This document shows positions 33,386 through 50,710 of a stretch of DNA of 64,000 bases, one piece after another (the first letter of the stretch is position 1; every line of letters starts with the position of its first letter). Under the pieces are notes generated by a model. That model was not told where the DNA came from and ran no database searches. It saw only the letters and a program-made list of their open reading frames with translations. Made by a program: the position numbers and the translations under genes. The stretch is from assembly GCA_050633305.1 (NCBI GenBank), contig JBOEGF010000018.1:416001-480000 (forward strand), written 5' to 3'. The DNA is from Nannocystales bacterium (lineage in GTDB: Bacteria > Myxococcota_A > Polyangia > Nannocystales > Nannocystaceae).

Positions 33386-33757
33386 TCAGTAGCCCCGAAT
33401 CTTGCGGAGGTCGCGAAGGTCGCGCTTGCTTGGGCGACCGGTGCCGCGGTCGCGGTAGACCATGGGGTCCACGAGTTCCCGAGGTGGGGGCGGCGGTGTG
33501 TTGTCCACGTACAGTTTCTGAGCTTCGGAGGCTGGCCCGCGGCGATCCCCGAGGGCTACGATCTCCAGGATGCGTAGACCGCCCGGCGTCCGAACCTCGA
33601 CGTGAGCGCCAACGCGCACGGTTTTGGATGCCTTCACCGAGTTGCCGTCGACCTTGACGTGGCCAGCCGTACAGGCCTTGCCCGCCATCGAGCGCGTCTT
33701 GAAACAACGTGCGGCCCAGAGCCACTTGTCGATGCGGACTTCGCTGAGTTCGGTCAT
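33386..33757 (-). CDS. hslR: Ribosome-associated heat shock protein Hsp15 (S4 domain)
   Basis: RIDKWLWAAR.FKTRS, RRGPASEAQ.LY, GRPSKRD.R; ATGA overlap with the RND stop. Confidence 0.92.
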   Translation of the reverse strand: MTELSEVRIDKWLWAARCFKTRSMAGKACTAGHVKVDGNSVKASKTVRVGAHVEVRTPGGLRILEIVALGDRRGPASEAQKLYVDNTPPPPPRELVDPMVYRDRGTGRPSKRDLRDLRKIRGY

Positions 33758-36700: not shown

Positions 36701-36921
36701 ACCTGCTCCTCGATCGGACGGATGACCTCTCGTTCGAGGACCTCGGGGCTCGTGCGCTCGATCTGGACCCGGACGTAGAGCCGGGGCTTGGTGTCCGAGG
36801 GCAGGAAGGACAGAGGCATCGAGAACAGACCGATGACACCGAGCAGCAGGACTGCGCACAGAGCCATCTCGACCGTGACGGGGCGGTCGAGCGCGAGGTC
36901 GGAGAGGGCCCAGCGCCGCAT
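33754..36921 (-). CDS. RND efflux permease (AcrB/AcrD/AcrF family)
   Basis: GMLVDNAVV, STLSTI.VF.P, GVVVNNGIM, RLRPILMT..TT.LGLLP; about 1055 aa. Confidence 0.93.
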   Translation of the reverse strand: MRRWALSDLALDRPVTVEMALCAVLLLGVIGLFSMPLSFLPSDTKPRLYVRVQIERTSPEVLEREVIRPIEEQVATVRDLERIQVGSGSWGVKVNLDFEPGTDIDARKLELRDRIERIRDELPSFVNNIYIGAYSNFDDPMMEMQVSSGTDLSEDYYLIEERIVRKLERVPGVARVELDGVSPHELEVKVNLESVESSGVELADLSQAVRDARTGRSLGMLRDGQQVAGLRSPSTAAQPQRLAKIPLPRRAAEPRTISETGVAAPADGADRFAPLGEVANITAHAKKERRARRLNGRRAINVEVFAQAGASAVEVSERIRAVMVELDRDPALDGIDLLVIEDQGETILKTLGDLRNTGIYGGLLGLVILFLFLHRGTTTLAASVSIPMSVVVAGGILFLRGDELNCIVLLGLVLGVGMLVDNAVVIVEAITLQAQRGHAPLAAARLGSREVGFATIASTLSTIIVFIPLVATESHDDMLIYLRPLGITFAIGLIASLAVSQTAIPLLMGRVLKPRAKTLNHPVLRRLSAAYAAFVTLTLKVPRLTLLVGLAMAGSAYIPLSVMELELGEAEFESDNLPIRLQFAGSKGYEKIEGHVQVLEDELLKNKEDLGIEAVSCSFSDHWGNCRVYPAVTFQSETETNAFKAQLSRALPPQVGVTYRVAERDFDWRRNRDKHVVEFALKGEDMGALIALSEDVAAHLSQRLPQGDRARPDDGGFDNIITPFDEGARELHVQLRDDRLRRVGLTPSEVAERVSLAFQGLPLGTTRGERGDLELRLSADIPEEGSAGVAMLRDLKLQTSTGDEITLSSVADIEIARRPYWIQRVDRQTEAKVKVRFMKADPEANFKAISAALEDYQFPPGYSWGRGTSWRQEEEVGNEMLVNLGLCLLLVYAVMASLFESYLQPLGILLTCLLGCFGAPWALWLTDTTLDTTAIVGFFILIGVVVNNGIMLVDRVTQLRAQGMPREQALRVAGEDRLRPILMTMTTTVLGLLPMLLHHPTLAGVYYHAIAVVIAGGLLTSTVMTLVFLPASYTLLEGVSKSAGRAWGHAFGKRS

Positions 36922-37067
36922 GGCCGGAGCATAACGTCTGCTGCGGGGCGAATTGGGCGCCGAGAAGACGTGTTCCGTTCGTCGCCCCCGGGGGCCGTCC
37001 ATCGCCTGGAGGCGCCGCTCGTCGGCGGGCCCGAGCCCGACGACACCGACTTCGTCATCGTGTTGGC

Positions 37068-37703
37068 ATGCAGTTGTATTCGTCTGTCCTGGTCGGAGTC
37101 CTGTTTCTCGCCGGCTGTGCTAGTGAGTCCCCGACGACCGGCCAAGGCGGGACTTCGGGAGGGACCGAGGGCCTTGGGACGGACGTCGCTCAGAGCAGCA
37201 GCTCGCCTGGGTCGCAGGAAGACTCATCGCCCAATGGGAGCACGGGGGAGGGCGCGGATGCCTCGTCCGGTTCCGGCGACTCGGGTCTGGAGACCATCGA
37301 ACTCGACCGCGGGTGGGTCGCAGAGTTGGAGGGAGCCTGGCTAGGGCCCGTCGCCGGGACTCCGCTCGGCGACCTTCCGCAGTTCTACTGGGAGTTCGCG
37401 TGGACCGACACGGACGCGCTGGTGGGGGTGGCGGACAGCGGGATGGGATTTCGATTTGAGTTCGAGTTCGCCGAGCACGACGGGCAGTGGACGTTGCTCG
37501 AGACCGGAACGCTGCCCGGAGACATCACGCAGTCCTACGAACTCCATCCTGTGAGCCGGGAAGGCGACCTCGTTCGGTTCGAGGTCCTGGACCAGCCGGG
37601 GTACCTCCAGGTGGACATTCTTCCTGGGGAAGGTCGCTTCGACATGGCGGTGTTCGTCCGAGGCGAGCCGCACGGGACCTTCGACCTCGCGCATCCGGGC
37701 TGA
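37068..37703 (+). CDS. Hypothetical lipoprotein
   Basis: Lipobox FLAGC, S/G/T linker, beta-rich domain. Confidence 0.75.
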   Translation: MQLYSSVLVGVLFLAGCASESPTTGQGGTSGGTEGLGTDVAQSSSSPGSQEDSSPNGSTGEGADASSGSGDSGLETIELDRGWVAELEGAWLGPVAGTPLGDLPQFYWEFAWTDTDALVGVADSGMGFRFEFEFAEHDGQWTLLETGTLPGDITQSYELHPVSREGDLVRFEVLDQPGYLQVDILPGEGRFDMAVFVRGEPHGTFDLAHPG

Positions 37704-37756
37704 GCGAGAACCTCTGTTCGCCGCAGGCGACGTCCTTTCCGCTATCCTTCGGATCG

Positions 37757-39151
37757 ATGGCGGAGATTCTCAGTCCGATCGATCACACCGTCGCGTTCTC
37801 CTACCCCGAGCTGCCGCGGGCCGAGGCGTTCGCCCGCCTCGAAGCCGCACAGAGAGCGCAGCGCGCGTGGATGGAGGTCCCTCTCGAGGACCGTGTCGCG
37901 CTGTGCCTTCGGGTGCTGGATGCCTATCGGTCGCAGCTGGACATGCACGCCGTCGCCATCACCAAAATGATGGGCAAACCGGTCGACCAAGCCCGGGGGG
38001 AGTTCGAGGGTGGCATGGTGGAGCGCACCAAGAGTTTGTGTGCACAGGCTGCTGACGCATTGGCCGACGATGTGCTTCCCGCGCAAGAAGGGTTCCGTCG
38101 ATTTGTAAGGCACGAGCCGGTGGGCGTCGTGCTGAACATCGCAGCGTGGAACTACCCGCTGTTGGTCCCCATCAACGTGATCGTGCCCGCCGTCCTCGCG
38201 GGCAACGCGGTCCTGCTCAAGCACGCTCCGCAGACTGCTCTTGTCGCCACCCAACTCCAGCAGGCCTTTGCCATGGCGGGTGCTCCGGCCGGCCTCGTTC
38301 AGGCCTTCATGGCCTCGCACGAGACCGTCGCCGAGGTGATTCACAGCCGCCGCCTGGGTGCCGTCGCGTTCACCGGTTCGGTGCGGGGTGGGCACGAGGT
38401 CATGCGGACCGTCGCGCAAGAGAACTTCCTCCCCTGCGGGTTCGAACTCGGCGGGAAGGACCCTGCGTTCGTGTTCGAGGATGCCGACCTCGACTTCACG
38501 GTCGGAAATCTCGTGGACGGTGCCTTCTACAACGCGGGGCAGTCGTGCTGCGGGATCGAACGTATCTACGTCCACGCTGCGGTGTACGACGACTTCGTCG
38601 AAGCCTATGCCGCCGCGGTGCGTGGCTATCGATTGGGCAACCCTCTGCATGACGGCGTCACGATGGGGCCGGTCGTCAACGCTGCCGCCGCACAACGGAT
38701 CAAGGCCCACAACGCACAGGCGGTGGCCATGGGGGCTCGGGCACTCGTCCCCGAGGACGCCTTCGATGTCCCGGACCTCTCCCCGTGTTACCTCGCGCCG
38801 CAGGCGTTCGAGCAGGTCACGCATGAGATGGACCTGATGCGCGAAGAGAGCTTCGGTCCCACCGTTGGGATCATGAAAGTCGCTTCCATCGACGAGGCGG
38901 TGGCGTTGATGAACGACTCCGCCTTCGGGCTCACGGCCTCGCTTTGGAGCACCGACGATGCCCGCGCCGAGTCAGTCGCGCGCCGAGTTCAAGCCGGGAC
39001 CGTCTTCCTCAACCGATGCGACTACCTCGATCCACAGATGCCGTGGACAGGCGTTAAAGACTCCGGTGTCGGGTGCTCTCTGGGCCGCTATGGGTTCGGT
39101 CAGGTCACCCGTCTCAAGAGCTACCACCTGCGAACCGCAATCCCGAAGTGA
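37757..39151 (+). CDS. Aldehyde dehydrogenase
   Basis: AWNYP, FTGS, FELGGKDP, NAGQSC, EESFGP. Confidence 0.95.
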   Translation: MAEILSPIDHTVAFSYPELPRAEAFARLEAAQRAQRAWMEVPLEDRVALCLRVLDAYRSQLDMHAVAITKMMGKPVDQARGEFEGGMVERTKSLCAQAADALADDVLPAQEGFRRFVRHEPVGVVLNIAAWNYPLLVPINVIVPAVLAGNAVLLKHAPQTALVATQLQQAFAMAGAPAGLVQAFMASHETVAEVIHSRRLGAVAFTGSVRGGHEVMRTVAQENFLPCGFELGGKDPAFVFEDADLDFTVGNLVDGAFYNAGQSCCGIERIYVHAAVYDDFVEAYAAAVRGYRLGNPLHDGVTMGPVVNAAAAQRIKAHNAQAVAMGARALVPEDAFDVPDLSPCYLAPQAFEQVTHEMDLMREESFGPTVGIMKVASIDEAVALMNDSAFGLTASLWSTDDARAESVARRVQAGTVFLNRCDYLDPQMPWTGVKDSGVGCSLGRYGFGQVTRLKSYHLRTAIPK

Positions 39152-39155
39152 CACG

Positions 39156-40508
39156 ATGACTCCCACCGACGTTCCCTCGCTCGTTGCCTTCCTCGACCAA
39201 CACGGGATCACCCGGCACAAGATCGGTGTCTTCGACATCGATGGCGTCCTGCGCGGCAAGTACATGAGCCGCGAGAAGTTCCTTTCTGCGGCGGAGAAAG
39301 GTCTGGGGTTCTGCGACGTCGTCTTGGGATGGGACGTCGCCGACCAACTCTACGACAACGCTACCGTCTCGGGGTGGCACACCGGGTATCGGGATGCGCC
39401 GGTGGTGCTCGACCTCTCGACGACCCGCCTGCTGCCGTTCGAGCCGAACACCGTCTTCGTGCTCGGCGGTTTCTCGGGCGCCTACGAGCCGGTCTGCCCC
39501 CGCGCAGTGTTGCGACGGACATTGGAGCGTGCCGCTTCGATGGGGTTCGAGGTGAAGGCCGCCTGCGAGTACGAGTTCTTTGTGTTTGATGAGACCCCGG
39601 ACTCCGCGCGTGAGAAGGGCTATCGAGGACTCAAGCCGTTTACGCCCGGAATGTTCGGCTACTCGACGATCCGCAACAGCGTGCACTTCGAGCTGTACCA
39701 CCAGCTGCTCGATGAAATGGAGGCGTTGGGCATCAGCATCGAGGGGCTGCACACGGAGACTGGCCCCGGGGTGCTCGAGGCCGCGCTTACCGTAGACGAG
39801 GCAGGCCTGGCTGCCGACAAGGCGGCGCTGTTCAAGACCTTCACGAAGGTGTTGTTGCAGCGTCGTGGCTTGATGGGGACGTTCATGGCCAAGTGGAGCA
39901 ACGACTACCCGGGCCAGTCGGGGCACATGCACGTCTCGTTGGAGCGAGCGGGGACCAACGTCTTCCACGACCCCAACGACGGCGAGGGGCTCAGCACGAC
40001 GATGCGTCAGTTCCTCGCCGGGCAGGTTCGGTACATGCCCCAGGTTTTGCCGATGGTCTGCTCTACGATCAACGCGTTCCGACGTCTCGTGCCTGGGATG
40101 TGGGCGCCCATCTCGGCCAGCTGGGGGATCGAGAACCGAACCACCGCGATCCGGGCGATTCCTGGCGGCGTCAAGGGTACACGAAGCGAGTACCGCCTGG
40201 GGCCCGCCGACGCCAACCCCTACTTGGGTCTTGCCGCCGCGATCGCCACTGGTCTGAGGGGCATCGAGGAGGAACTCATCCCCAGCGAGCCCGTCAAGGG
40301 GAACGCCTACGAAGATCCCGGCGATGCCGAACCCCTGCCTCGTTCGCTCGCGGCTGCGACCGAGGTTTTTTCGCGCAGCGCTGCTGCCCGCGAGTTGTTC
40401 GGGGACACGTTCGTCGAGCACTACGCAGCGACCCGAAACTGGGAGGTTCGCGAGCACCAAAAACATGTCGCGGATTGGGATCTGCAGCGCTACTTCGAGA
40501 TCATCTAG
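39156..40508 (+). CDS. Glutamine synthetase-like protein (probable gamma-glutamyl-amine ligase)
   Basis: DIDGVLRGK, EYEF, HTETGPG..E, FMAK...GQSGHMH, WGIENRT, E.R...ADANPY. Confidence 0.9.
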   Translation: MTPTDVPSLVAFLDQHGITRHKIGVFDIDGVLRGKYMSREKFLSAAEKGLGFCDVVLGWDVADQLYDNATVSGWHTGYRDAPVVLDLSTTRLLPFEPNTVFVLGGFSGAYEPVCPRAVLRRTLERAASMGFEVKAACEYEFFVFDETPDSAREKGYRGLKPFTPGMFGYSTIRNSVHFELYHQLLDEMEALGISIEGLHTETGPGVLEAALTVDEAGLAADKAALFKTFTKVLLQRRGLMGTFMAKWSNDYPGQSGHMHVSLERAGTNVFHDPNDGEGLSTTMRQFLAGQVRYMPQVLPMVCSTINAFRRLVPGMWAPISASWGIENRTTAIRAIPGGVKGTRSEYRLGPADANPYLGLAAAIATGLRGIEEELIPSEPVKGNAYEDPGDAEPLPRSLAAATEVFSRSAAARELFGDTFVEHYAATRNWEVREHQKHVADWDLQRYFEII

Positions 40509-40603
40509 CCGAACGGGTTGCACCCCCACCTCGCGCGGACTCCAAGACCGCGCATGGCTGAAACCCGCGGTCAGAATCGGCCACGTCGGTTTGACGCCCA
40601 CAG

Positions 40604-41515
40604 TTGTTGTTCATGAACATGATGATGGTGCGTCGCCTGCCACTGTGCATCGCGATGTCGGTGTGCGGATGTTTGAAGCCGAACCCTGAGTATCTCGGGC
40701 AAGGCGGGACGGGTTCGGGCGGCGTAGACGGTTCCGCGGCGACGACGGATACCGCGGGCACAGAAGCCACAACGTCTGTCCCGGTCGGCACCGGAGTCGA
40801 CTCCGCCAGCGCGGAGGGAGAGGGCACCGTGAGCGCGGGGACCGAGTCGACTGATTTGGCGGAATCGACCGGGGGAACGCCAGATACGACCGGCGGAGCG
40901 ACCGAGGTGTGTCCCGCTGGAGATGCCCTCCGCGTCTGTCTGAACTTCGATGCAGAGGCGGTATCGGACGTCACCGACCAGTCTGGCTCACGCCTATCCG
41001 GTGACGGCATTGGGGCTGCTCTCGTCGACAGCCCGTGGGGAGCCGCGTTCGAGTTCTCCGCAAGGACGCAGGTCGAGGTTGATTGTGCAGGCGAGTGTGC
41101 GGGCGGTTCGACGGTGACATTCGAGGCCAGGGTCGACCTCGATGAGGTTCCTGCCGCAGGTGGGCGCGCGGGCATCGTCGACAACAACGGGATCCTCGGC
41201 ATGTTCGTGACCGACGCCTTGGCGCTGCGACGTGTCTCGAACGATGGGACGCTCGAGGGAGGATGACTCCTGCCCGGCGAGTGGACTCATGTCGCCTGCG
41301 TGGCGGATGAGGAGACCCTCTTGGCGTACGTCGACGGTGTGAACGTCTCCGCGCTGCCGATCGAGCCGCTGGCGCGCAGCGCAAACCCGCAGCCGGTCGG
41401 GATCGGCAACAACGCCCCGCAGTTCGACGACGGCTTGGTGGGCGCCCTTGACCGGGTCCGGATCTGGGACGAGGCGCGGAGCGTCGAGCAACTGCTCGCG
41501 TCTTCGTCCCCGTAG
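40604..41515 (+). pseudogene. LamG-domain lipoprotein interrupted by one in-frame TGA (41264-41266)
   Basis: The frame continues past TGA as LLPGEWTHVACV...AYVDG...IG...GALDRVRIW, completing a LamG domain. Confidence 0.75.
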
Positions 41516-41549
41516 CGTTGTCGACGGTTTCCGGCGACCATGGGGTCCC

Positions 41550-42716
41550 ATGAACGCACTGTCCGGGAACTTCAACTACCCCACGGCCTATCGCATCGGC
41601 GCGGGTCGCCTCCGTGAACTTCCCGGTGCATGTGCCGAGCTCGGCATGGCGCGGCCGCTCGTCGTCACCGACCCCGGTGTTGCGTCTCTGCCTTGGTTCG
41701 ATGCCGCGATGAAAGGCCTGGAGGACGCAGGCTTGGGCAGGGCGGCGTTCAGCGATGTGCACCCGAACCCGACAGGGTCCGACGTCGCCGCGGGGGTCAC
41801 CGCGTTCTTGGAGGGCGAGCACGACGGCATCGTCTTGATCGGCGGCGGCTCGGCGATGGACGTGGGCAAGTCGATCGCACTCGTCGCCCGCAACCCCGGC
41901 GACGTGTTTGCGTACGAGGACGTGGGGGACAACTGGACCCATGCCGACCCTGCGAAGGTCGCCCCGATGCTCGCGGTCCCCACGACCGCTGGCACCGGGT
42001 CCGAGGTTGGGCGAGCCGGGGTGATCGTCGACGAACGCGACCACGGGAAGAAGATCATCTTTCACCCCAAGATGCAGCCTGGGTTGGTCATCGCCGATCC
42101 CGAGGTGACGCTCGGCCTCCCCGCGGGCCTCACCGCCGCGACGGGCATGGACGCGCTTGCCCACTGCTTTGAAGCCTTCTGTGCGCCTGGCTACCACCCC
42201 ATGGCCGACGGGATCGCGCTCGAGGGGATGCGCCTGGTTGCGGAATTTTTGCCGCGCGCTTTCGCGAACGGGAGCGACTTGGAAGCTCGGACCCACATGA
42301 TGATGGCGGCCTCCATGGGGGCGACCGCGTTCCAAAAAGGGCTGGGTCTGGTTCATGCGCTCAGCCATCCGGTTGGGGGGGCGACGGGCCTTCACCACGG
42401 CACGGCAAACGCGATCTTCTTGCCCTACGTCATGGTGTTCAACCGCGACGTGATCGAATCGCGCATGGAGCGATTGGCGGGGTTTCTTCAGCTTCCCACG
42501 CGCGGATTCGATGGGGTGATGGAGTGGATGTTGGCGTTGAGGTCGGACCTGGGTATGCCTCACACCCTTGCAGCTGCGAGCGGCTTTGATGCCGCGATGG
42601 CTGCGCGGCTCGCTCCCGCCGCTGTCGCGGACCCGTCGATGGGGACCAATGCGAAGCCTGCGGATGCGTCGCAGTGTGAGGCGGTGTTTCTCGCGGCGCT
42701 ATCCGGAACGCTCTAA
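41550..42716 (+). CDS. Iron-containing alcohol dehydrogenase
   Basis: GGGSAMDVGK, PTTAGTGSE, DALAH, HALSH, HHG. Confidence 0.95.
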   Translation: MNALSGNFNYPTAYRIGAGRLRELPGACAELGMARPLVVTDPGVASLPWFDAAMKGLEDAGLGRAAFSDVHPNPTGSDVAAGVTAFLEGEHDGIVLIGGGSAMDVGKSIALVARNPGDVFAYEDVGDNWTHADPAKVAPMLAVPTTAGTGSEVGRAGVIVDERDHGKKIIFHPKMQPGLVIADPEVTLGLPAGLTAATGMDALAHCFEAFCAPGYHPMADGIALEGMRLVAEFLPRAFANGSDLEARTHMMMAASMGATAFQKGLGLVHALSHPVGGATGLHHGTANAIFLPYVMVFNRDVIESRMERLAGFLQLPTRGFDGVMEWMLALRSDLGMPHTLAAASGFDAAMAARLAPAAVADPSMGTNAKPADASQCEAVFLAALSGTL

Positions 42717-42820
42717 CGTGGGGCGGCTCGCGCCATCGGCACGGGGATGCGTTGGGTCTACGCAAGTCCGGCTCCCGGGTCTATATTGTCGGCCTGGTGC
42801 GCCAAGGCGAGCGTCGAAAC

Positions 42821-44113
42821 ATGTTGCGGGCACTGTCGGGTCCGCTTGCCGGGGCCACCTTCGAGGTGGGCCCACGGGTGCTCATCGGTCGGATGGCAGC
42901 CTGCGACGTTCAGATCGTTGACGTCGAGGTTTCTCGCGAGCACGCGATGATCGTGACCCACGATCGCCAGCCCACGTTGGTCGATCTCGACAGCCGCAAC
43001 GGCACGTACATCGACGGCGAGCGAGTACAACGGGTTCCGCTCCAAGCCGGCGACAAGTTCTCGATCGCGGGTTCGGAGTTCATCTACGACCGTGCCGCGC
43101 CGATCAGCACCACGCCCGTGTTGTCCACGCAGTTTGGCGTCGACCCCTCCGCCCCGCGTTCGCGCAGCGGGCAGGGCGAGGCACATCCAACTCGGGAAAC
43201 CGCCTCGGCGAAGCCCACGCGGTCCGAGGTCGGGGCCGTCGATGAGCGGGACACACAACGTGCGATGGCTGCGGCCAAGGATGCTCCGCCGGTTCCTGCT
43301 CCCGTTGCAGATCCGGCCACTCCCTCGAAGCCCCCGGCCGTGTCTCGTCCGACGGTCCGCCTCGAAGCCGCCACGGCTCCCGCGGCGCCGACGGAAGCGG
43401 AAGACAAGGCCACTGTGCAGATTCGGGCTGCGAAGGGACCAACGGCGCCGCAGGCCGAGCATGCGGCTCGTGCGACAGCATCGCTCGCGGCACTCGCTGC
43501 GACGCCCAAAGCCCCCGAGCCGCCTCCTTCGTTCACGCCGCCGCCGGTCCCGACCGAGCGGGTCGCTACGGCGCGGGCGCCAGGACCGAGCAAGACCTCC
43601 CTCGGTGCCTACAATGGGGACCTGTTCAAGGACATCACCGCCTATCGGTCGTTTCGGCTCCAGCTCCAGCGCGGGGAGATGCCATCCGGCGAGGAAGTTT
43701 CCGCGATGATCGACCTTGAAGCGGAGCTCCGGGAGCCGGTCGAGACCGACCCGCGACGCGACGTCGTCACCAAGAGATTCTTCCGCCGGTTTCCGTTTGC
43801 CACATCCTTGCAGGCTCGGTTCTCGACGTCGGGGCGAATGGTCACCGCCGAGGGGACGACGACCAACCTTTCAGCGGACGGCCTTCAGTGCTCCTTGGAA
43901 CTCGGGAAGTTCTCTCCGAAGCCCGAGCAACTCGCGATGCTGGTGATCGAGCACGAACGCGATGGCGTTGAGGTTCGCTACTCGGTCACGGCGCGGGTGG
44001 TGTGGTCTCGCAACCGCGTCGCAGGGTTTGTGTTTGCCGGCGTGCCCAGCTGGAGCGAGCGGGGAGACTTCGACGACGTCGACACCGCGGTTCGGACCCA
44101 CCCGATGGCCTGA
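42821..44113 (+). CDS. FHA domain - Pro/Ala linker - PilZ domain protein
   Basis: FHA: IGR...VSREHA...DLDSRNGT. PilZ-like: KRFFRRFP and NLSADG...ARVVW...GFVF. Confidence 0.8.
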   Translation: MLRALSGPLAGATFEVGPRVLIGRMAACDVQIVDVEVSREHAMIVTHDRQPTLVDLDSRNGTYIDGERVQRVPLQAGDKFSIAGSEFIYDRAAPISTTPVLSTQFGVDPSAPRSRSGQGEAHPTRETASAKPTRSEVGAVDERDTQRAMAAAKDAPPVPAPVADPATPSKPPAVSRPTVRLEAATAPAAPTEAEDKATVQIRAAKGPTAPQAEHAARATASLAALAATPKAPEPPPSFTPPPVPTERVATARAPGPSKTSLGAYNGDLFKDITAYRSFRLQLQRGEMPSGEEVSAMIDLEAELREPVETDPRRDVVTKRFFRRFPFATSLQARFSTSGRMVTAEGTTTNLSADGLQCSLELGKFSPKPEQLAMLVIEHERDGVEVRYSVTARVVWSRNRVAGFVFAGVPSWSERGDFDDVDTAVRTHPMA

Positions 44114-44159
44114 GTTCGTCTCGGGCCTGGTCGCCCGTGCGCGAACGCTGGGCGGAGTG

Positions 44160-44693
44160 TCACGGGCGTCGAAGGGCGGCGGAGTGGGCGACGAACGATC
44201 CTGCTGCGGCCGGGTCATGGCTGAGCTCGAGGCTCACGGGGGTGTCCTCGTACAGCGCATCGACGACCGCATCGCAGACCTCGGAGGTGGCGCACCGGGC
44301 TCGGGTCTGCCCCACGAGTTCGAAGGTGGACGAGTCGACGCGCTCGACGAACTCCGGCGGAAGATCGATCTTGAACCGTGCGGTCTCGTCGACGGACTCT
44401 TCGGTGACGACCTCGATCAGATCGAAGCTCGGGATCTCTCCGGCGGCCGGGGCCACGAGCGCGCGGAGCTCGTACTCGGTTCCCCACTGATGCTCGAACC
44501 CGGCGATGTCGCGGGCGTGTGTGATGCCCGGCGGATCGCTCTGCACCACCCGGAGGCAGTAGCCGGGCTGCCCATCGGGGCAGGGTTCGCGAAAGTGATC
44601 GACACGTAGCGTGACCTCCTGCGGTGGCTCCAGATCACAGGCGGTCAGTCCGAGTGCGGTCAGCATGCCGAAGGTGAGTACGAGTCTGCGCAT
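44160..44693 (-). CDS. Lipoprotein, DUF4377-like
   Basis: Lipobox LTAC; 'PC......CL.V....IAGFE...G.EYEL'. Confidence 0.65.
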   Translation of the reverse strand: MRRLVLTFGMLTALGLTACDLEPPQEVTLRVDHFREPCPDGQPGYCLRVVQSDPPGITHARDIAGFEHQWGTEYELRALVAPAAGEIPSFDLIEVVTEESVDETARFKIDLPPEFVERVDSSTFELVGQTRARCATSEVCDAVVDALYEDTPVSLELSHDPAAAGSFVAHSAALRRP

Positions 44694-44713
44694 GGCGAAG
44701 TACCCACTACCTG

Positions 44714-44729
44714 TGCAACGCGTGTGCCA
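44714..44729 (-). promoter_or_regulatory. Sigma-54 (-24/-12) promoter for the DUF4377-like lipoprotein
   Basis: Minus strand TGGCAC-ACGCG-TTGCA, with consensus spacing, ending 20 nt before ATG 44693. Confidence 0.7.
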
Positions 44730-44893
44730 CGGTCCCGCGGCGCAGGCGAACACTCTCGGAGGGGGCCATCACAGCTGCTCTGCGAGGGTTCGAGGCGGAT
44801 CGCCCCAGCGCGGCGCTTGCCTCGGAACCGGACAGTGATGTCGCGACACGAGGCGACCCGTGGCGGCGCTGTCATGGCCGACGCCCGCCGGGA

Positions 44894-46786
44894 CTATCGC
44901 CGCGTAAAGGCGAACGCGGCGTTCTTCGAGCGCAGGGTCATGCCACGCGCGTCTTTGGACTCATCGAGGTTGAACATCACTCGGTTGCCGGAGTGGTCCT
45001 TGAAGAAGAACTGGCCCCGCCCCATTGGGTGCATCCATGTGAGTCCATGTCCGGGAACGTCGAAGTACAGCCGGTCTCCGGACGCACGCACATGCACCGT
45101 CTGCAGCATGGCGAACCGTTCTGGGTCGGTCAGTTCGGCGAAACGCGACCACGTGTCTTCCGTCAGCCGATACGTGCCCACATAGCGGTCGTACGTGCTG
45201 GGGGCGATCTTGACCTCGTGGGCTTCGCGACGGCGCTCGGGCTCGTCGCCGTAGACGAGCATCGCGACGTCTTGTGCAACGCGGCTCGCTGGCACGACCT
45301 CGGTGTTGCATAGGACCAACACGGTGGTCTCGTCCTCAACGAAGTAGATGAGTGACCCGTTGAAGCCATCGATGGCAGCGGGGAAGCTCAGGACCGTTTG
45401 GCCGTACCCATGGTCGACCGCGAGGCCGTACCCGTAGCCATGCTCGGACGCGCTGACCATCTCCTCAAGGCTAGAGGCTTCGAGAATCTTGCCGCCGTGC
45501 AGTGCTGCGTTCCACTTGACGAGGTCGGTTGGCGAGGACACCAAGCCACCTGCGCCCCCGAAGACCGACATGTGGATTGGGTCGGGCGGGTCGAGCAACT
45601 CTTCGTCGTTCCAGACCCGGCCGTGGGCTTGCTCTCCCGAGTCGTACGCGTCTCCGTATGTGGATTGCGTCATGCCCGCGGGCACAAACAGGTTGCGCCG
45701 AACGTAGTCGCCAAACGCCATGCCCGACGCCTTCTCAACCACCGCGCCGAGGAGGTAGTAGTTGGCGTTGGAGGGGCTGAAGTCGGTGCCGGGCTTGAAC
45801 TCGAGCGGGAGGGACGAGAACCGCCCGATCAGCTGCTCGGTCGTATGCGCCTCATCCTTCCAGGTGTGGAAGTAGGGGAGCGCGGTGTAGTTGGGGATGC
45901 CGGAGGTGTGCCGCAGCAGCTGCCCGACCGTGATCTCTTCGCCGCGGGGGTAGTTGGATACGAAGCGGGAGATCGGCTGGTCGAGCGAGAGTTCCCCGCG
46001 GTCGCGCAACTGCAGCACCGCCGCGGCCGTGAACTGCTCGGTCAGCAACCCCAAGCGGTACCGGGTACCGACGGTGTTCGGGACGGTGTCTTCGGCGTCG
46101 GCCCACCCAAAGCCTTGGCCCGAAATGATCTCACCGTGGCGAGCGACGACGATCGACCCATGGAACTTGAAGGCCGGGCCCCAGTCCGCGCCGTAGTCCG
46201 AGACGATGCTCGCAACCGACGTGGCGAGGTCGTCGGGAATCGGAGTCCCGGGGGTGCCGGTTTCGCGGAACTGCGGACGGCCGAGCGAGTCGGGCTCGGC
46301 GTACAGAGAGTCGGCCGTGTCGGGAGTGCCGTCCGTGGCGACAGCGGCGAGCGTGTCCGGGTAGGGGCCTGGGTCGAGCGCGTAGGCACCCGCACCAGCC
46401 AGGCCGACGCCGAGCAGAAGCCCTGCGGCGATCCGGCCCCACGGGCGCCGTGGCTGCACGTCGTCCAGACCCCCAACGTCTACCGAGGTACGGGACGTGG
46501 GGGAGGAGGTTGAGTCGGTCGACGCATCATCGGCGAGTCGAAGCTCAGACGACGTCTCCGCGGCCATCACCTTGGCGGCAAAGCTATCGCCCACCAATTG
46601 CTCGACCAGCGTCTCCATGGCGGGGTCGGAGCGCCACGCATCCAGGGCGTAGCCTTCGAGCTCGTCGAGGTCCATGGACATGCCCACGCCCGACTCGAGC
46701 GGAAGACCACCAAGGAGGTCCTGTGCGTCGGTCCCCTCTGGCTCCTGGCCGAGATCCGGGGTTTGAGGGTCGCCGTCCTTATGCAT
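44894..46786 (-). CDS. Membrane-anchored class C beta-lactamase/PBP-fold protein with degenerate active site and DUF3471-like tail; putative anti-sigma sensor
   Basis: Acidic N-terminus, one TM, then 'ITVGQLLRHTSGIP', 'PLEFKPG', 'GAGGLVSSPTDL', 'YVGTY'. Overlaps the ECF stop. Confidence 0.85.
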   Translation of the reverse strand: MHKDGDPQTPDLGQEPEGTDAQDLLGGLPLESGVGMSMDLDELEGYALDAWRSDPAMETLVEQLVGDSFAAKVMAAETSSELRLADDASTDSTSSPTSRTSVDVGGLDDVQPRRPWGRIAAGLLLGVGLAGAGAYALDPGPYPDTLAAVATDGTPDTADSLYAEPDSLGRPQFRETGTPGTPIPDDLATSVASIVSDYGADWGPAFKFHGSIVVARHGEIISGQGFGWADAEDTVPNTVGTRYRLGLLTEQFTAAAVLQLRDRGELSLDQPISRFVSNYPRGEEITVGQLLRHTSGIPNYTALPYFHTWKDEAHTTEQLIGRFSSLPLEFKPGTDFSPSNANYYLLGAVVEKASGMAFGDYVRRNLFVPAGMTQSTYGDAYDSGEQAHGRVWNDEELLDPPDPIHMSVFGGAGGLVSSPTDLVKWNAALHGGKILEASSLEEMVSASEHGYGYGLAVDHGYGQTVLSFPAAIDGFNGSLIYFVEDETTVLVLCNTEVVPASRVAQDVAMLVYGDEPERRREAHEVKIAPSTYDRYVGTYRLTEDTWSRFAELTDPERFAMLQTVHVRASGDRLYFDVPGHGLTWMHPMGRGQFFFKDHSGNRVMFNLDESKDARGMTLRSKNAAFAFTRR

Positions 46787-47459
46787 GGTAGACCTCCCCG
46801 AGCGCTTGGCGGAGTCGCTTGCGCGCCCGGTTGAGGCGCGACTTGACCGTACCCAAATCGATCCCTAGCGCGGCGGCGATCTCGGTGTACTCGAGGCCGT
46901 GATACTCGCGAAGGATAAAGGCGGCTCGGTACTCCGGGGCGAGCTCCTCGACGGCGCGAGCGATGACGTCCGCCAACATCTTGCGTTCGGCGGATTCGTC
47001 GGCGCGGGCCCGGGCTTCGAGGTGGGAGGCCGCTGGGCTCTCGAGAGGACGGGTGTCGAGTCTGCGGCGGCGAAGCTCGTCAATGGTGCGGTGGGAGGCG
47101 ATCGTCAGGATCCACGTGGACAGCCGCGCGGGGCCATTGCGGTCGAACTTGGGAAGCGCGCGGAATACGCGGAGGAAGGTCTCCTGGGCGACATCTTCGA
47201 CGAGCGCTGCTTCGCCGCGCCCCCGAAGCATGCGGGAGACGAGGGCGAGCACCGGTCGCTGGTAGCGCTCGACCAGAGCTCGTCGGGCTCGCGAGTTCCC
47301 GCGCTGTGCGCTCGCCACCGTGAGCTCGTCCAGCTCGGGGTTACGCGGCGGTTGCGGGCGGCGCGGGGGCATCGCTTGAACCTGATGAGCCGGGGTCAAC
47401 GCCTCTGGTTCACGGCGCGGCGGGCTGGGTGTTCCCGCTTTGAGCACAAATGTGTCCAT
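46779..47459 (-). CDS. ECF sigma-70 family sigma factor
   Basis: EDVAQETFLRVFR...LSTWILTIA; LEYTEIAAALGIDLGTVKSRLNRAR. Start is 47459 or 47372. Confidence 0.93.
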   Translation of the reverse strand: MDTFVLKAGTPSPPRREPEALTPAHQVQAMPPRRPQPPRNPELDELTVASAQRGNSRARRALVERYQRPVLALVSRMLRGRGEAALVEDVAQETFLRVFRALPKFDRNGPARLSTWILTIASHRTIDELRRRRLDTRPLESPAASHLEARARADESAERKMLADVIARAVEELAPEYRAAFILREYHGLEYTEIAAALGIDLGTVKSRLNRARKRLRQALGEVYHA

Positions 47460-47565
47460 GAAGGTCGAAGTGGGGCGGTTCGAAGGCGAGCCTCAGACGT
47501 AGGAAACGTGATCTGGACTCGCGGTTCGCGCAAATCAAGCTGGTTTCGGTATCCTGCGCCGGCCC

Positions 47566-49323
47566 GTGAGCACCCGCCAAGCATGGAGCGCTGTTGGCCT
47601 GCTGGCGTTGATGCTGGTGCTGTTGAGGCTCCCGACCCTCGACACCGGGCTCCACATGGACGACATCGCCCAGCGCGCGATGGTGGACGGCGCCTATCCA
47701 GCAGCGCGTTCCCCGTGGGACCTCTACACGTTCTCGACCGGGGAGGTGCAGGAAGTCGCCGGGCTCAAGCGAGCTGGGGCGCTCCCGTGGTGGTCGGACC
47801 CACAGCTACGGCTGAGCGCCCTTCGACCGCTCGCCAGCGTGTTGGTTTGGGTCGACGCGACCATGCTCGATCCCAAGGCCGCACATGTGCACTCGCTGCT
47901 GTGGTGGTTGGCGATGTTGGCCGCGCTTGGCTGGGCGCTCGTACCGATCCTTGGCGGGCGGTGGGCGTGGCTCGCGATTGCGTTGTACGGCCTCGATGAT
48001 GCGCATGCCCTCCCGCTGGCGTGGCTTGCGAACCGTGCCGCAATCCTCAGCGGCGCGTTCGGGTGGGTGGTGCTCGGGTTGTACGTGCGTGCTTCCACGG
48101 GGCGGACATCACCTCGCACGGCGTGGCTCGCCGCGGCGACGATCGCCTGCGTATCCGCGGGGGAGTACGGCTTGTCCGCGCTCGCGTACGTCGGCGCTTA
48201 CGCGGTCGTATTGGATCGCCGCCCCTGGCAAGCGCGACTACGTGCCGTGGCACCCGTGCTGATCCCTGCTGGCGCTTACCTGGTGTTGCATCGTGTCGGT
48301 GGGTTTGGGGCGGAGTACTCGGGCGTCTACATCGATCCGGCGGCCGAACCGATGGCGTTCGCCGGAGCGGTGTTGGAGAGGAGTCCTCGGTTGCTCCTCG
48401 ACATGGCCACGGGGATCCCGTTGCTCTTGTTGGAGGGATGGTCGTTGGCCGGGATTTGGGCGGTTGCGATCCTCGCGGTCGGCGGAGGGGGGCTGCTCGT
48501 CCGGTGGTTGCATCCGCAAGCTGATCGCCGCCGTATCGTCGTGTGGGCTCTGGTCGCAGCGGTCGTTGCTGTTGTCCCTGTCTGCGCATCGTTTCTCTCG
48601 GAGCGACTCACGGTGCTGGCTTCGGTGGGGGTTCACGTTGTGAGCGCGGCAGTGTTGCTCGGTGCGTTGGAGAGAATCTCCGAGCGCAGACGCCACGCGA
48701 GTACGGTCGTCGCCGGGGCGGTGACGGTCGGGTTGTTGTTCGGGCACGTCTGGGTTGCGCCGCATTCGTCCGCCGCGAAGGTGGAGGCCCTCACACGCTT
48801 CAACGCGGCTGGGCTTGCGCTGGCCGAAGCGATGCCGGTGGATGACGTTCACGCCCGCGAAGAACGGTGGGTCTTGCTCGCGGCCGGGGATCCGATGATG
48901 CTCGTGTACCCGCCGCACCTACGAGCGATGACCGGCCATCCGCGGCCCGAAGCGTGGACGGTGCTTACGCTCGCGAGCGGTCCGCTGTCGATGAAACGCA
49001 TCTCTCCGGTTGCGCTCGAGATCACGGCAGCGTCCGGGTGGATGCAGACCCCGCTCGAACGCTTCTTTCGCCGGAGTGACCGTCCGCTGCGTCTGGGGGC
49101 GCGTGAAGGGTTCGATGGAATGCAGGCCGAGGTGACGCAGGTCGAGGAAGGAGTCCCCAAGACCGTTCGCTTTACGTTCGATCGACCGCTTCACGACCCG
49201 AGCCTGCGCTTCATGAGCGTGGGCATGCGGGGGGTGTTTCGGTACCCATTGGCGGGGAGCGGAGCCACCATGCCCCTCGCTCGTGGTGCGGACGCCATCG
49301 CCGCCGCGGCAGGAATCCCCTGA
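47566..49323 (+). CDS. Polytopic membrane protein, GT-C glycosyltransferase-like
   Basis: First TM followed by a DD motif (GLHMDD), RPL, WLANR, many TMs and a periplasmic C-terminus. Confidence 0.6.
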   Translation: MSTRQAWSAVGLLALMLVLLRLPTLDTGLHMDDIAQRAMVDGAYPAARSPWDLYTFSTGEVQEVAGLKRAGALPWWSDPQLRLSALRPLASVLVWVDATMLDPKAAHVHSLLWWLAMLAALGWALVPILGGRWAWLAIALYGLDDAHALPLAWLANRAAILSGAFGWVVLGLYVRASTGRTSPRTAWLAAATIACVSAGEYGLSALAYVGAYAVVLDRRPWQARLRAVAPVLIPAGAYLVLHRVGGFGAEYSGVYIDPAAEPMAFAGAVLERSPRLLLDMATGIPLLLLEGWSLAGIWAVAILAVGGGGLLVRWLHPQADRRRIVVWALVAAVVAVVPVCASFLSERLTVLASVGVHVVSAAVLLGALERISERRRHASTVVAGAVTVGLLFGHVWVAPHSSAAKVEALTRFNAAGLALAEAMPVDDVHAREERWVLLAAGDPMMLVYPPHLRAMTGHPRPEAWTVLTLASGPLSMKRISPVALEITAASGWMQTPLERFFRRSDRPLRLGAREGFDGMQAEVTQVEEGVPKTVRFTFDRPLHDPSLRFMSVGMRGVFRYPLAGSGATMPLARGADAIAAAAGIP

Positions 49324-49390
49324 GCCCGTGCAGCACGGGCACGGGGCCCCGCGCGGCTTCTCCTGCGGACTGTTAGAGTTGGCGAGCGCG

Positions 49391-50710
49391 ATGACCGACG
49401 AACGCAAGATCCCGCGCGGGCGCCTTAGCCGCGTAGCCAAGCTCGCTCGAGCAGGGGCGACCTCGGGGCTCGCAATGCTGCGCTCCAAGAGTGCGACCGG
49501 AGCGGCGGACAAAGTCGCCGGCATGCTGGGGGAGATGCGGGGGGTCGCCACGAAAGTCGGCCAAATGGCCAGCTATGTCGATGGGCTCATCCCGCCGGAA
49601 CACGCCGAGGCGTTCGAACGCAGCATGTCGAAACTGCGAGCGGGTGCCCCCAGAAGCTCGGCCTCCGACATCCGCCGCACGTTGACCGAGGACCTCGGCG
49701 CGCCGCCCGAGGACCTGTTCTCGTCGTGGGAAGACGTTCCGATTGCCAGCGCATCGATCGGGCAAGTTCACCGTGCAACCTTGCTCGACGGTCGAGCGGT
49801 GGCGGTCAAGGTTCAGCATCCTGGAATCGCCGAGGCGATGGAGGCGGACATGCGCAACGCAAGCCTCATGGACTTTGGCTCACGAGCGTTCGGGTTCGGG
49901 AAGTTCGAGGTCGGTCGCTTGGTCGACGAAGCGAAGGCGCGGTTTCGGGAGGAACTCGACTACGGCCTCGAGCGTGCGCGGTACGAACGATTTGCGACGC
50001 TCCACGCCTCCGACCCCAAGGTCGTCATTCCCGAGGTGATCTCGGAGCGCTGTTCCTCGCGAGTCCTGACCACCGCGTTTGTCGAGGGCATCGACTTCGA
50101 CCGAGCCTGCGAGGCCTCCGAGTCGGACCGCCGCGCCTGGGCGCAGACGCAGTGGCGGTTCGTCTACGGCTCGATCATGCTCGGCGGCATCTTCAACGCG
50201 GACCCGCATCCTGGCAACTATCGGTTCTTGCCCGACGGTGCGGTCGGCTTCCTCGACTTCGGGTGTGTCCAGGAGATCAACAACTACAACCGAAGGCGGA
50301 TCGTTGCCGGACACGTGTCCTTGGCCGAGGGGAGCTTCGACGGATTCGAGGTCGCGATGGCCGAGATGCTCGCCGCCCAAGATGGCACCCACCGTCGCGA
50401 GATGGCGAGCTACATGCGACATGCTGTCTCACCGCTGCTCGAGTCTCCGTTTCGGATCACCCGGGAGTTTGCCGGCGAGGTGGTCCGGCGGTTCCGGTCG
50501 ATGGCGAAGTCCATGATCAGCTTGTCGGGCTCGGACTACGCGGCGATGCCCGAGGGGATCCTCTTCCTCAACCGACTTCAGTTTGGCTTTTATTCGGTCC
50601 TGGCCAGACTCGACGTGCAAGCCGACTACGCCGCCGTGGAGCGGTCGTTCTTGGACGAGGCGCAGGACGCAGTGCGCGACCTGCCGGACTCCAAAGCACG
50701 ACGGGGGTAA
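49391..50710 (+). CDS. ABC1/UbiB (AarF) family atypical kinase
   Basis: KVGQ, ASASIGQVH, VAVKVQHPG, EELDY..E, NADPHPGN, LDFG. Confidence 0.93.
   Translation: MTDERKIPRGRLSRVAKLARAGATSGLAMLRSKSATGAADKVAGMLGEMRGVATKVGQMASYVDGLIPPEHAEAFERSMSKLRAGAPRSSASDIRRTLTEDLGAPPEDLFSSWEDVPIASASIGQVHRATLLDGRAVAVKVQHPGIAEAMEADMRNASLMDFGSRAFGFGKFEVGRLVDEAKARFREELDYGLERARYERFATLHASDPKVVIPEVISERCSSRVLTTAFVEGIDFDRACEASESDRRAWAQTQWRFVYGSIMLGGIFNADPHPGNYRFLPDGAVGFLDFGCVQEINNYNRRRIVAGHVSLAEGSFDGFEVAMAEMLAAQDGTHRREMASYMRHAVSPLLESPFRITREFAGEVVRRFRSMAKSMISLSGSDYAAMPEGILFLNRLQFGFYSVLARLDVQADYAAVERSFLDEAQDAVRDLPDSKARRG

Follow-up and report, generated by a model that had tools for sequence, protein, structure and literature searches.

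An ECF sigma factor and a dead peptidase-fold membrane protein of Nannocystaceae as a predicted switch for gliding-motility genes

When an ECF sigma factor gene runs into the gene of a membrane protein with a penicillin-binding fold and no catalytic residues, what does the dead domain do, and which genes does the sigma factor control? We analyzed such a pair in a stretch of 64,000 nucleotides from a Nannocystales bacterium (the window). A preliminary description had proposed a pseudoenzyme receptor that binds muropeptides, D-amino-acid peptides or beta-lactams and controls the ECF. Below, "core" denotes genera and genomes of the host's lineage and "basal" the earlier-branching members that carry the pair. 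Feature coordinates are listed in Table 1.

The gene pair and its promoter

The locus comprises two minus-strand ORFs, 46779-47459(-) for the ECF and 44894-46786(-) for a membrane protein of 630 residues. As described before, the ECF stop overlaps the next start (ATGCATAA at 46779-46786); in most orthologues this overlap is 4-17 nt, usually 8 or 11. The ECF protein matches Sigma70_r2 and Sigma70_r4_2 (PF04542 and PF08281, both over cut-off) as well as TIGR02937 (111.6 bits, cut-off 42.9) in Pfam and NCBIfam scans. It consists of sigma2 and sigma4 only (~200 residues), and its nearest solved sigmas are 6in7, 5wuq and 1or7.

The overlapping pair is borne out; the start of the ECF gene probably has to be moved. 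The conserved promoter (47436-47411) falls within the ORF of the preliminary description, so the true start is probably TTG 47399 and not the in-frame ATG 47459. Conservation of the 20-residue extension from this ATG is confined to the host genus in an orthologue alignment. The promoter motif, GGAAC-N16/17-CGTG/A, is new here and was found upstream of the ECF in all 50 anchored loci (three further loci are unanchored); the full GGAAC-N16/17-CGTG pattern arises in 0.4% of shuffles. At the sequence level, all anchored loci carry the -35 and -10 elements expected of an autoregulated ECF promoter. In the host, CGTG lies 16 nt past GGAAC and 11 nt upstream of the start codon, and the ECF transcript would be near-leaderless. 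A scan of positions 44000-48000 for Sigma70 promoters and terminators returned none of either.

The two genes stay together. Of the 72 genomes of the order, 50 have an ECF orthologue, and the next gene encodes the dead protein in 48/48 assessable Nannocystaceae loci (two more end at a contig edge), which upholds the proposed coupling. The core ECFs form one clade. Beyond the pair, the loci listed share only small, mostly single-genus groups of neighbours, which gave no clue to function.

Table 1. Features of the locus (positions in the window).
Feature	Position	Strand	Basis
-35 element GGGAAC, predicted autoregulated ECF promoter	47431..47436	(-)	GGAAC at equivalent place, 50/50 anchored orthologue loci
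-10 element CGTG	47411..47414	(-)	CGTG in 48/50 loci, CGTA in 2/50
ECF sigma factor, 206 aa from TTG 47399	46779..47399	(-)	Pfam, NCBIfam, orthologue alignment, promoter position
Predicted anti-sigma factor, 630 aa, 8 nt overlap with ECF stop	44894..46786	(-)	ORFs, orthologue loci
Predicted two-helix anti-sigma segment, residues 38-80 (W51, F69, V73 conserved)	46547..46675	(-)	Alignment, structure model, complex model, paralogue partners
TM helix, single, Gly/Ala-rich, residues 119-137	46376..46432	(-)	Hydrophobicity; N-in inferred from preceding basic residues
Catalytically dead serine-hydrolase domain (PF00144, family S12), residues 183-515	45242..46240	(-)	Pfam, alignments, structure
SxxK replaced by LLTE (L247, E250)	46037..46048	(-)	Pairwise alignments to solved enzymes
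YxN replaced by PSN (P338 on tyrosine)	45767..45775	(-)	P in 90/91, L in 1/91
HxG replaced by FPA (F468 on His, P469)	45377..45385	(-)	F in 91/91
C-terminal beta-rich domain, residues 525-630	44897..45214	(-)	Weak DUF3471 match; aligns with Pab87 C-terminal domain

A peptidase fold without catalytic residues behind a predicted anti-sigma segment

PF00144 matches residues 211-509 of the membrane protein (E 1e-53, 182.7 bits), and the structure model has a pLDDT of 93-99 in 10-residue blocks across residues 171-520. The nearest solved folds are Pab87, D-amino acid amidase and R61, with an rmsd of 2.2-2.5 Å over ~320 residues of the catalytic domain and Z up to 39.8. The beta-lactamase fold of the preliminary description is therefore retained, but its assignment to class C is not: S12 D-peptidases and amidases reach Z values of 36-40 versus ~33-34 for class C enzymes, and the class C (AmpC) model NF033085 scored 40.4 bits against a cut-off of 415. 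Similarly, the DUF3471-like tail is a weak match under the Pfam cut-off (21.9 vs 29.3 bits). The Pab87 structure 2qmi aligns over residues 184-629 (rmsd 7.0).

All three catalytic motifs are replaced exactly where the preliminary description had placed them. Position 247 is Leu, Met or Val in 89/89 covered core homologues, Glu250 is found in 89 of the 90 covered, and none of the 91 core homologues keeps the catalytic Ser, Lys, Tyr or His. TTG and GAG are indeed one base from TCG and AAG, but this is uninformative because orthologues carry CTC, CTG or ATG at the TTG position. Near-invariant residues of the dead domain are E250, P338, F468, P469, D473, W309, W392, E396 and E496, and the former active-site segments are conserved at 0.74-0.88 versus a domain average of 0.72. 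The dead protein has a dN/dS of 0.045-0.19 (five same-genus pairs), and the C-terminal domain one of 0.03-0.08 within the genus. Recent pseudogene decay is rejected by the complete loss of catalytic residues among the relatives, this purifying selection and the invariable ECF adjacency; the protein is a conserved pseudoenzyme, as had been claimed. No alternative set of catalytic residues was identified. The dead domain carries a mean net charge of -20; its active relatives from myxobacteria average -6.5.

In a tree calculated with the motif columns dropped, all 49 dead rows fall on one side of a branch and 39 intact rows on the other (SH-aLRT 99). Among active enzymes, the closest relatives are lipoproteins from myxobacteria. 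Dead lipoproteins also exist as a sister family that lacks an ECF alongside, so the suggestion that motif loss tracks ECF adjacency applies to the 48 loci of the pair but not to these sisters. Many basal members retain Ser or Thr plus His. Outside the family, a strict and hence weak first look at E 1e-110 gave no match in 396 genomes of the phylum; one of 24 same-class genomes contained a match, which is an intact enzyme.

Residues 1-113 carry 25 Asp/Glu versus 6 Lys/Arg, in agreement with the acidic N-terminus noted before. The single TM helix, also noted before, directly follows the sequence RRPWGR and consists of Gly and Ala by about half. It is present in 82 of 86 full-length homologues, with an excess of Lys/Arg before over after it in 80 of 86. 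By these positive-inside counts the N-terminus would be cytoplasmic. The model of the host genus has helices at residues 40-52, 58-65 and 69-78 in the anti-sigma segment, the short one lying between the other two; basal N-termini align with only two helices and a linker of ~6 residues.

Modeling the ECF together with the N-terminus, a check proposed in the preliminary description, gave a complex score of 0.84 (best of three controls 0.01), which may reflect resemblance to solved ECF/anti-sigma pairs and was obtained with alignments that we built ourselves. The mark for this score is reached by 116 of 157 solved pairs and 2 of 215 mismatched pairs. The runs share at least 88% of contacts, with a partner pLDDT of at least 74. 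In the model, sigma4 is contacted by W51, while F69/V73 lie against regions 2.1-2.2 of sigma2, where RNA polymerase binds. This predicted contact pattern agrees with the dual interface described in passages of PMC7406223.

An equivalent N-terminal motif occurs in the partners of paralogous ECFs, ahead of a TM helix and FecR-like or PEGA domains. It was recognized by reading these partner proteins instead of by a profile search; a profile of the core N-terminus run against the ORFs of this genome found its own protein alone significant. An atlas search with residues 30-140 gave nothing at or above 0.9, the nearest named clusters being zf-HC2, RseA_N and DUF4880 (a lead only). The N-terminus lacks the zinc motif HxxxCxxC and has no Pfam ASD match; it shows neither the four-helix domain nor the zinc motif of class I ASDs (RseA/RsiW/zinc type). 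Because the two-helix motif recurs in paralogous-ECF partners and is modeled on both sigma2 and sigma4, the N-terminus is very likely an anti-sigma domain, as the preliminary description had assumed.

Predicted regulon and competing explanations

The motif precedes the gltC gliding operon in 27/27 core genomes, 0/21 genomes with a basal pair and 0/21 without the pair; since the core genera are kin, 27 versus 0 corresponds to about one evolutionary gain. It also precedes a TolA-like gene in 23/26 core genomes (three more have CGTT) versus 0/22 and 0/20. Wrong-spacer controls in core genomes gave 1/162 and 3/156. Further sites were found upstream of gltJ/agmX-like genes (10/30 loci; gltJ/agmX of this genome is without the motif). 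All Glt assignments score under the NCBIfam cut-offs. Of 17 non-self matches read in basal genomes, 7 precede genes for AgmX/PglI-C-type proteins (NF033768 confirms 6 of these), and genome G068 adds two candidate targets of this type; the basal candidates with this domain are small TonB-like proteins.

In this genome the motif was found upstream of none of 7 PBP-domain genes and of one of 11 other S12 paralogues (with CGTT), where it heads the operon of a paralogous ECF. The motif is short and without genome-wide enrichment (89 sites; wrong spacers give 68-91). Its top-scoring site in this genome precedes a UvrD-like gene. Four candidate targets failed or were weak when footprinted: the gene before pbp1A (2/26), a TlpA-like lipoprotein (4/15), cglF itself as a direct target (0/30) and a GltJ-like gene (7/30 loci, many of them incomplete).

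The regulon is predicted from these sites to be gliding machinery. We consider it probable that the pair is an ECF/anti-sigma switch: according to the prediction, the dead peptidase domain would do the sensing in the periplasm, and the sigma factor would activate genes of gliding motility. Given the motif before gltC and gliding-type genes, the AgmX/PglI genes in basal members and its absence from the PBP-domain genes, the pair is most likely a pseudoenzyme-gated switch of the gliding machinery rather than a beta-lactam sensor. The idea in the preliminary description of a system sensing beta-lactams or cell-wall antibiotics thus finds no support in the predicted targets, nor in the altered, acidic pocket domain.

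Based on these results we propose the following mechanism. The cytoplasmic two-helix segment would hold the sigma factor in a clamp, W51 contacting sigma4 and F69/V73 contacting sigma2. The dead domain would bind a peptide-type cue without turnover, and this cue would report on the envelope-spanning Glt machine. For the ligand, a component of the machine or outer membrane, whether a protein or a peptide, is the leading but tentative candidate; a peptidoglycan fragment seems rather unlikely, a ligand-free domain acting as a steric shield only would be improbable, and a beta-lactam very improbable. Regulated intramembrane proteolysis (RseP) would then, rather likely, remove the anti-sigma factor; two RseP homologues in the genome score over the cut-off. 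Once released, the sigma factor would activate its own operon together with the gltC operon and further genes of the Glt type; in earlier-branching members its targets would instead be small AgmX/PglI C-terminal-domain proteins.

A more specific version, which we put forward tentatively, is a dedicated Agl-Glt feedback regulator: a peptidase turned receptor, joined to a minimal two-helix anti-sigma, would read the assembly state or cell-wall attachment of the machine and tune glt transcription. On this view, a second round of pocket remodeling, in which Ser became Leu/Met, Gln became Glu and His became Phe, would coincide with the recruitment of the glt operon promoters into the regulon, so sensor and regulon would have been rewired together.

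Alternatively, the domain could be a general cell-wall stress sensor whose pocket binds muropeptides or D-amino-acid peptides, the gliding genes being one envelope output among several. The nearest folds, D-peptidases and D-amino acid amidases, and the raised conservation of the former active site fit this idea, as does the attachment of M. xanthus gliding complexes to AgmT-modified peptidoglycan (PMC11444678). However, no conserved peptidoglycan-enzyme target was found among the PBP-domain genes or at the pbp1A neighbour, and the loss of the pocket Lys, Tyr and His in an acidic domain would disfavor a carboxylate ligand. Muropeptide sensing by the dead domain is possible, but a general stress sensor is unlikely.

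The sigma/anti-sigma pair might also be genuine but control little beyond itself, with gltC and related promoters read by another ECF, either a cglF-linked one or a close paralogue. The gliding promoters are confined to core genomes, yet 23 basal genomes also have the ECF of the pair; of the genomes checked, 7/8 core and 0/4 non-core ones yielded the cglF-linked ECF, with the motif upstream in 6/7, and close paralogous ECFs are expanded in core genera. On the other hand, basal genomes also carry the motif before the ECF of the pair, and the two of them that were checked yielded no cglF-linked ECF, which makes the sigma factor of the pair the simplest reader. The motif is upstream of 0/25 other members of the cglF-linked ECF's family, whose sigma4 helix differs, and the visible own-promoters of eight Nannocystaceae paralogues carry a non-CGTG -10 element. 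Finally, genome G012 (71% complete) has both gliding promoters, and neither a paralogue nor the second ECF was found in it. We regard a different reader as doubtful.

It is quite improbable that the domain senses nothing specific and either acts through its folded bulk to keep intramembrane proteolysis at bay or works as an enzyme with other chemistry. The anti-sigma N-terminus does tolerate unrelated periplasmic domains in paralogous partners, the enzyme-fold domain of DdvA has been proposed as a partial steric barrier (passages of PMC11506125), and Ser or Thr plus His persist in basal members. But two observations point to a binding surface: hardly any variation is seen in the residues that replaced the catalytic ones, and a related dead domain has been retained in the form of a free lipoprotein. 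Nor was another set of catalytic residues identified.

The boldest reading of the preliminary description, a non-covalent beta-lactam receptor controlling resistance like BlaR1 or PbpP, has the fold and the known activation of an ECF by beta-lactams via a PBP (sigmaP-RsiP-PbpP) in its favor, but is highly improbable: PbpP requires its active-site serine and BlaR1 signals via a covalent bond (both from passages of PMC8092216), the pocket lacks this serine as well as Lys, Tyr and His in a domain more acidic than its active relatives, a search of this genome (92% complete) for class A beta-lactamase families gave no match, and the predicted regulon consists of gliding genes, the motif being upstream of no PBP-domain gene and of one S12 paralogue, at the head of another ECF's operon.

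Comparison with known systems

No matching published system was found in the literature searched (most subscription papers were outside its scope), nor did anything surface there on transcriptional control of myxobacterial gliding-machine genes. For these the pair puts a name to a candidate sigma factor and supplies a promoter sequence as well as target operons that are open to direct testing. If the proposal is correct, a penicillin-binding-fold pseudoenzyme constitutes a new class of anti-sigma sensor; living intermediates display its stepwise catalytic loss, and its two-helix anti-sigma module, for which there is no Pfam model, is reused with other sensor domains. Public records label these proteins as beta-lactamase-family or serine hydrolases, and they should not be counted as resistance enzymes.

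Like RseA/sigmaE, RsiW/sigmaW and CnrY/CnrH, the pair combines a co-encoded single-pass partner with a GGAAC-type autoregulated promoter. The predicted arrangement, in which the first helix sits on sigma4 and the last one on sigma2.1-2.2, resembles that of dual-binding ASDs (passages of PMC7406223), whereas the conserved cytoplasmic part has two helices only, no zinc motif and no Pfam match, and a dead S12 peptidase makes up the periplasmic domain. In its predicted layout the segment resembles class II ASDs (CnrY-like, two helices around sigma4 and sigma2), of which it may be a member. The passages on "lactamase" in the ECF re-classification (PMC7826278; main text and the available part of the supplement) mention no such anti-sigma factor.

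DdvA of the DdvA/DdvS system from Myxococcus xanthus is likewise a single-pass myxobacterial anti-sigma factor with a large enzyme-fold periplasmic domain and is processed by RseP. It differs by its zinc ASD, a TPR-CHAT protease fold that keeps the His-Cys dyad, and an antiphage defence output (passages of PMC11506125). MipB from Pseudomonas aeruginosa is similar to the dead domain at the fold level, with a beta-lactamase fold without SxxK, degenerate YxN/KTG motifs and C-terminal beta-barrels, and works in envelope signaling via a protein partner. It is, however, a standalone lipoprotein without an anti-sigma fusion, and a histidine kinase has been proposed as the recipient of its signal (passages of PMC10936184). 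The dead protein has no lipobox but a TM helix and an ECF partner; it is the dead lipoprotein sister family that resembles MipB in layout.

BlaR1/MecR1 and sigmaP-RsiP-PbpP from Bacillus thuringiensis also place a penicillin-binding fold ahead of a switch in transcription; sigmaP is an ECF freed by proteolysis. In contrast to the pair, the sensors of these systems retain the catalytic serine and depend on it, PbpP is a protein of its own and the output is beta-lactam resistance (passages of PMC8092216). In the dead protein the domain is fused and the serine absent, and Pfam and NCBIfam scans gave no protease domain. With the S12 hydrolases (Pab87, D-amino acid amidase, R61 and the myxobacterial lipoproteins) the dead domain shares the whole fold; the dead protein differs from them in that all catalytic residues are replaced and a predicted anti-sigma segment with a TM helix takes the place of the signal peptide.

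Architecture and ancestry of the inactive domain

The window sequence shows both open reading frames, the 8 nt by which they overlap and all three changed catalytic motifs (SxxK replaced by LLTE with L247 and E250, YxN by PSN with P338, HxG by FPA with F468) at the positions of the preliminary description. The upstream gene matched family models of ECF sigma factors. In the 630-aa downstream protein the proposed acidic N-terminus, single hydrophobic helix (residues 119–137) and PF00144 domain were borne out; the DUF3471-like tail was recovered as a weak match below the cut-off. An AlphaFold model reached a pLDDT of at least 90 at 447 of 630 residues, with a confident periplasmic part, helices at residues 40–52, 58–65 and 69–78, and low-confidence stretches at residues 1–36 and 82–155. 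The nearest solved folds are D-peptidases and amidases of family S12, with AmpC enzymes behind. Judged by eye, the regions 37487–42716 and 33754–37002 presumably hold aldehyde dehydrogenase, glutamine-synthetase-like and iron-containing alcohol dehydrogenase genes and an RND-type transporter.

Coordinates of the features (plain numbers, window; G000, genome of the window; C, contig; L, locus)
Feature	Coordinates	Strand	Remark
FHA-PilZ protein	42752-44113	+	neighbour, common mainly to this genus
Small probable lipoprotein, no family	44160-44753	-	neighbour, common mainly to this genus
Dead protein (predicted anti-sigma)	44894-46786	-	
ECF sigma factor	46779-47399	-	
Divergent membrane protein, no family	47566-49323	+	neighbour, common mainly to this genus
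ABC1-type kinase	49283-50710	+	neighbour, common mainly to this genus
ECF of another family, linked to cglF copy	G000:C18:17853-19085	+	single reading frame with cglF copy in this genome
Dead PF00144 lipoprotein	G000:C43:103965-105400	-	lipobox-Cys signal peptide, no anti-sigma segment
Candidate motif sites (RpoD-like, UvrD-like, DsbA-like, GspC-like set)	G000:C32:29803(-), C22:123656(-), C8:101806(+); L617, L614		

The loss of the catalytic residues is not a recent decay. Among the best 120 of 472 homologues, the 91 core proteins (query included, 44–90% identity) all lack the catalytic Ser, Lys, Tyr and His, and all 28 more distant homologues are intact. The replacements are nearly fixed in the core set: E250 in 89 of 90 covered sequences, P338 in 90 of 91 and F468 in 91 of 91. 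For the domain, dN/dS was 0.045–0.19 in five same-genus pairs and 0.27–0.42 in three pairs from different genera, whose dS approaches saturation. The basal, earlier-branching members have lost Lys and Tyr and usually retain Ser or Thr and His. In a quick, unrooted tree of 88 chosen sequences, calculated without bootstrap, one branch separates all 49 dead from 39 intact domains (SH-aLRT 99 with the motif columns dropped). The pattern fits a history in which catalysis was lost once and the core group was then remodelled further. Among the matches listed from the best 150 in 1.84 billion representatives, about 17 clusters are full-length and have the sensor/anti-sigma layout; all are dead.

A third dead group comprises lipoproteins without an anti-sigma segment (L028–L030, L217–L222 and L230–L236, from four core genera). 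ECF matches are missing at 11 of 14 loci; the remaining three have a distant ECF (~30% identity) more than 1 kb off. The layout is similar to that of MipB, a dead beta-lactamase-fold protein that acts via a protein partner according to the excerpted report (PMC10936184), and the family could be a decoy, a sensor partner or a pre-fusion state. At G000:C22:114900-117430(-), a GGGAAC-N17-CGTT site precedes an operon that encodes an intact S12 lipoprotein together with a paralogous ECF and an anti-sigma; this arrangement suggests a possible route to the sensor/anti-sigma fusion.

Coupling to the ECF and predicted sigma binding

Of the 72 genomes from the order, 50 carry an orthologue of the ECF (27 core, 23 basal). 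As proposed, the two genes are coupled: the dead protein is the next gene in all 48 assessable loci, two more being truncated by contig ends. The expectation that motif loss tracks with ECF adjacency holds from the side of these ECF loci and fails for the dead lipoproteins, which mostly lack an ECF. In one genome (G004:C12, L005/L033) the anti-sigma gene is interrupted by an in-frame TGA directly behind the transmembrane helix; this is probably an assembly error or a private mutation, because its 90% cluster holds a full-length member.

The aligned N-termini contain one helix ending in Trp and one "FAxRV" helix. A loose pattern for this motif matched 82 of 86 full-length core proteins; near-identical stricter patterns matched 78 of 86, versus none of 28 intact relatives. 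Partners of paralogous ECFs begin with the same motif at 14 of 23 loci by pattern and at five more by eye (four were mis-picked). In these partners (L237–L256, L040–L042) it is fused to FecR-like, PEGA or undefined periplasmic domains; among 17 scanned, four were FecR-like (two over the cut-off) and five PEGA. Judged from these sequences, the two-helix anti-sigma motif is a reusable module, for which Pfam has no model.

When the ECF was modelled in complex with anti-sigma residues 30–95, the proposed binding was predicted with a score of 0.84 against 0.01 for the best control. This mark is attained by 116 of the 157 solved pairs and by 2 of the 215 mismatched ones; the score may in part reflect a resemblance to solved complexes. 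Contact agreement between runs was at least 88% and partner pLDDT at least 74. In the model W51 lies on sigma4 and F69/V73 on sigma2 regions 2.1–2.2, matching the dual interface of class I and II anti-sigmas described in the excerpted source (PMC7406223).

Promoter motif and predicted gliding regulon

The predicted promoter GGAAC-N16/17-CGT(G/A) precedes the ECF in 50 of 50 anchored loci (53 in all), compared with 0.4% of shuffled sequences. Its spacer sequence varies freely, and GTG or TTG usually follows after 10–12 nt. Since the motif occupies 47436–47411 in the window, the ECF start likely shifts to the TTG at 47399. An in-frame upstream extension overlapping the promoter (47400–47459) is kept with synonymous changes in this genus only; two start sites are possible. 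Because a motif of this length is not distinctive across the whole genome, candidate targets were footprinted individually.

The motif precedes the gltC orthologue in 27 of 27 core genomes, in none of 21 basal genomes and in none of 21 genomes that lack the pair (assessable genomes in both cases). Near agmX, a gene for a TolA-like membrane protein has it in 23 of 26 core rows (plus three with the variant -10 CGTT; two core rows are probably paralogues), in 0 of 22 basal genomes and in 0 of 20 without the pair. In this genome gltC heads a run of a large TPR gene, gltE-like, cglF and gltG genes; the run crosses a contig break and was joined by synteny with relatives. The Glt names rest on sub-cut-off NCBIfam matches and gene order. 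Further motifs precede additional gltE-like and gltD-position copies and 10 of 30 gltJ/agmX-like loci, of which nine belong to one genus. Of the 17 non-self matches inspected in basal genomes, seven lead to small proteins, secreted or lipoproteins, with an AgmX/PglI C-terminal domain; GltG and GltJ carry this TonB-CTD-like domain (PMC11761067, in part). As the core genera are kin, the gltC contrast amounts to about one evolutionary gain; its weight lies in positional conservation over six genera and in several independent targets. A gliding-type regulon is thereby predicted.

Other sites were seen as well. In genus g17 (L283, L588, L585, L591) a small AgmX/PglI C-terminal-domain gene diverges from the ECF with a second motif copy. 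A GltJ-like single-pass protein (G000:C18:689611-690849(-)) has a CGTT-variant site kept in four same-genus genomes and CGTG sites in three genomes of another genus. Candidate sites were also noted for an RpoD-like sigma, a UvrD-like helicase, a DsbA-like lipoprotein and a GspC-like protein.

We consider it likely that the ECF of the pair reads the gltC promoter. Among 144 ECF-like ORFs in this genome, only this ECF and one RpoE-like ORF are closely preceded by the strict motif. In eight Nannocystaceae paralogues the gene's own promoter is visible, and its -10 differs from CGTG (GGTG in four); two metagenome paralogues have GGTG and CGTG. A serious alternative is that the cglF-linked ECF (L627, L633, L634, L648–L650) reads the gliding promoters instead: it was found in seven of eight core but none of four non-core genomes checked, with the motif upstream in six of seven. 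However, none of the 25 further members of its family has the motif, so that a place among the downstream targets is the simpler reading for it. The cglF-linked ECF is a possible cascade member or rival reader.

Possible cue and relation to known systems

The ligand is suggested by analogy with known systems. A peptide or protein linked to the gliding machine seems to us the best candidate, a muropeptide the next and a beta-lactam the least likely of the three. The proposed beta-lactam sensing found little in its favour: the motif precedes none of seven PBP-domain genes and one of 11 other S12 genes, a CGTT variant heading a paralogous ECF operon, and no class A beta-lactamase family match was found in this genome. 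PbpP requires its serine and BlaR1 signals via a covalent bond (PMC8092216, in part). The mean net charge of the dead domain is -20, versus -6.5 in active myxobacterial relatives. The preference for a peptide or protein follows from the missing PBP and class A link, the missing serine, this charge and the MipB precedent. A wall-fragment cue would also fit the regulon, because gliding complexes attach to peptidoglycan (PMC11444678, in part). By analogy, the sigma factor would be released from the anti-sigma by RseP-type proteolysis, for which DdvA is a precedent (PMC11506125, in part); this genome has two RseP homologues.

Our literature search found no matching system in which a beta-lactamase domain is part of an anti-sigma. 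In the supplement to the ECF re-classification (PMC7826278), six "lactamase" passages concern neighbours or regulon outputs, not anti-sigmas; relevant entries may also stand among its later groups and tables. ECF control of glt genes is not mentioned in the available portions of an M. xanthus review (PMC12288465) and of a paper on Glt evolution (PMC3169522). The predicted gliding-gene output of this pair is unexpected and testable; the system itself is a new form of a known kind.
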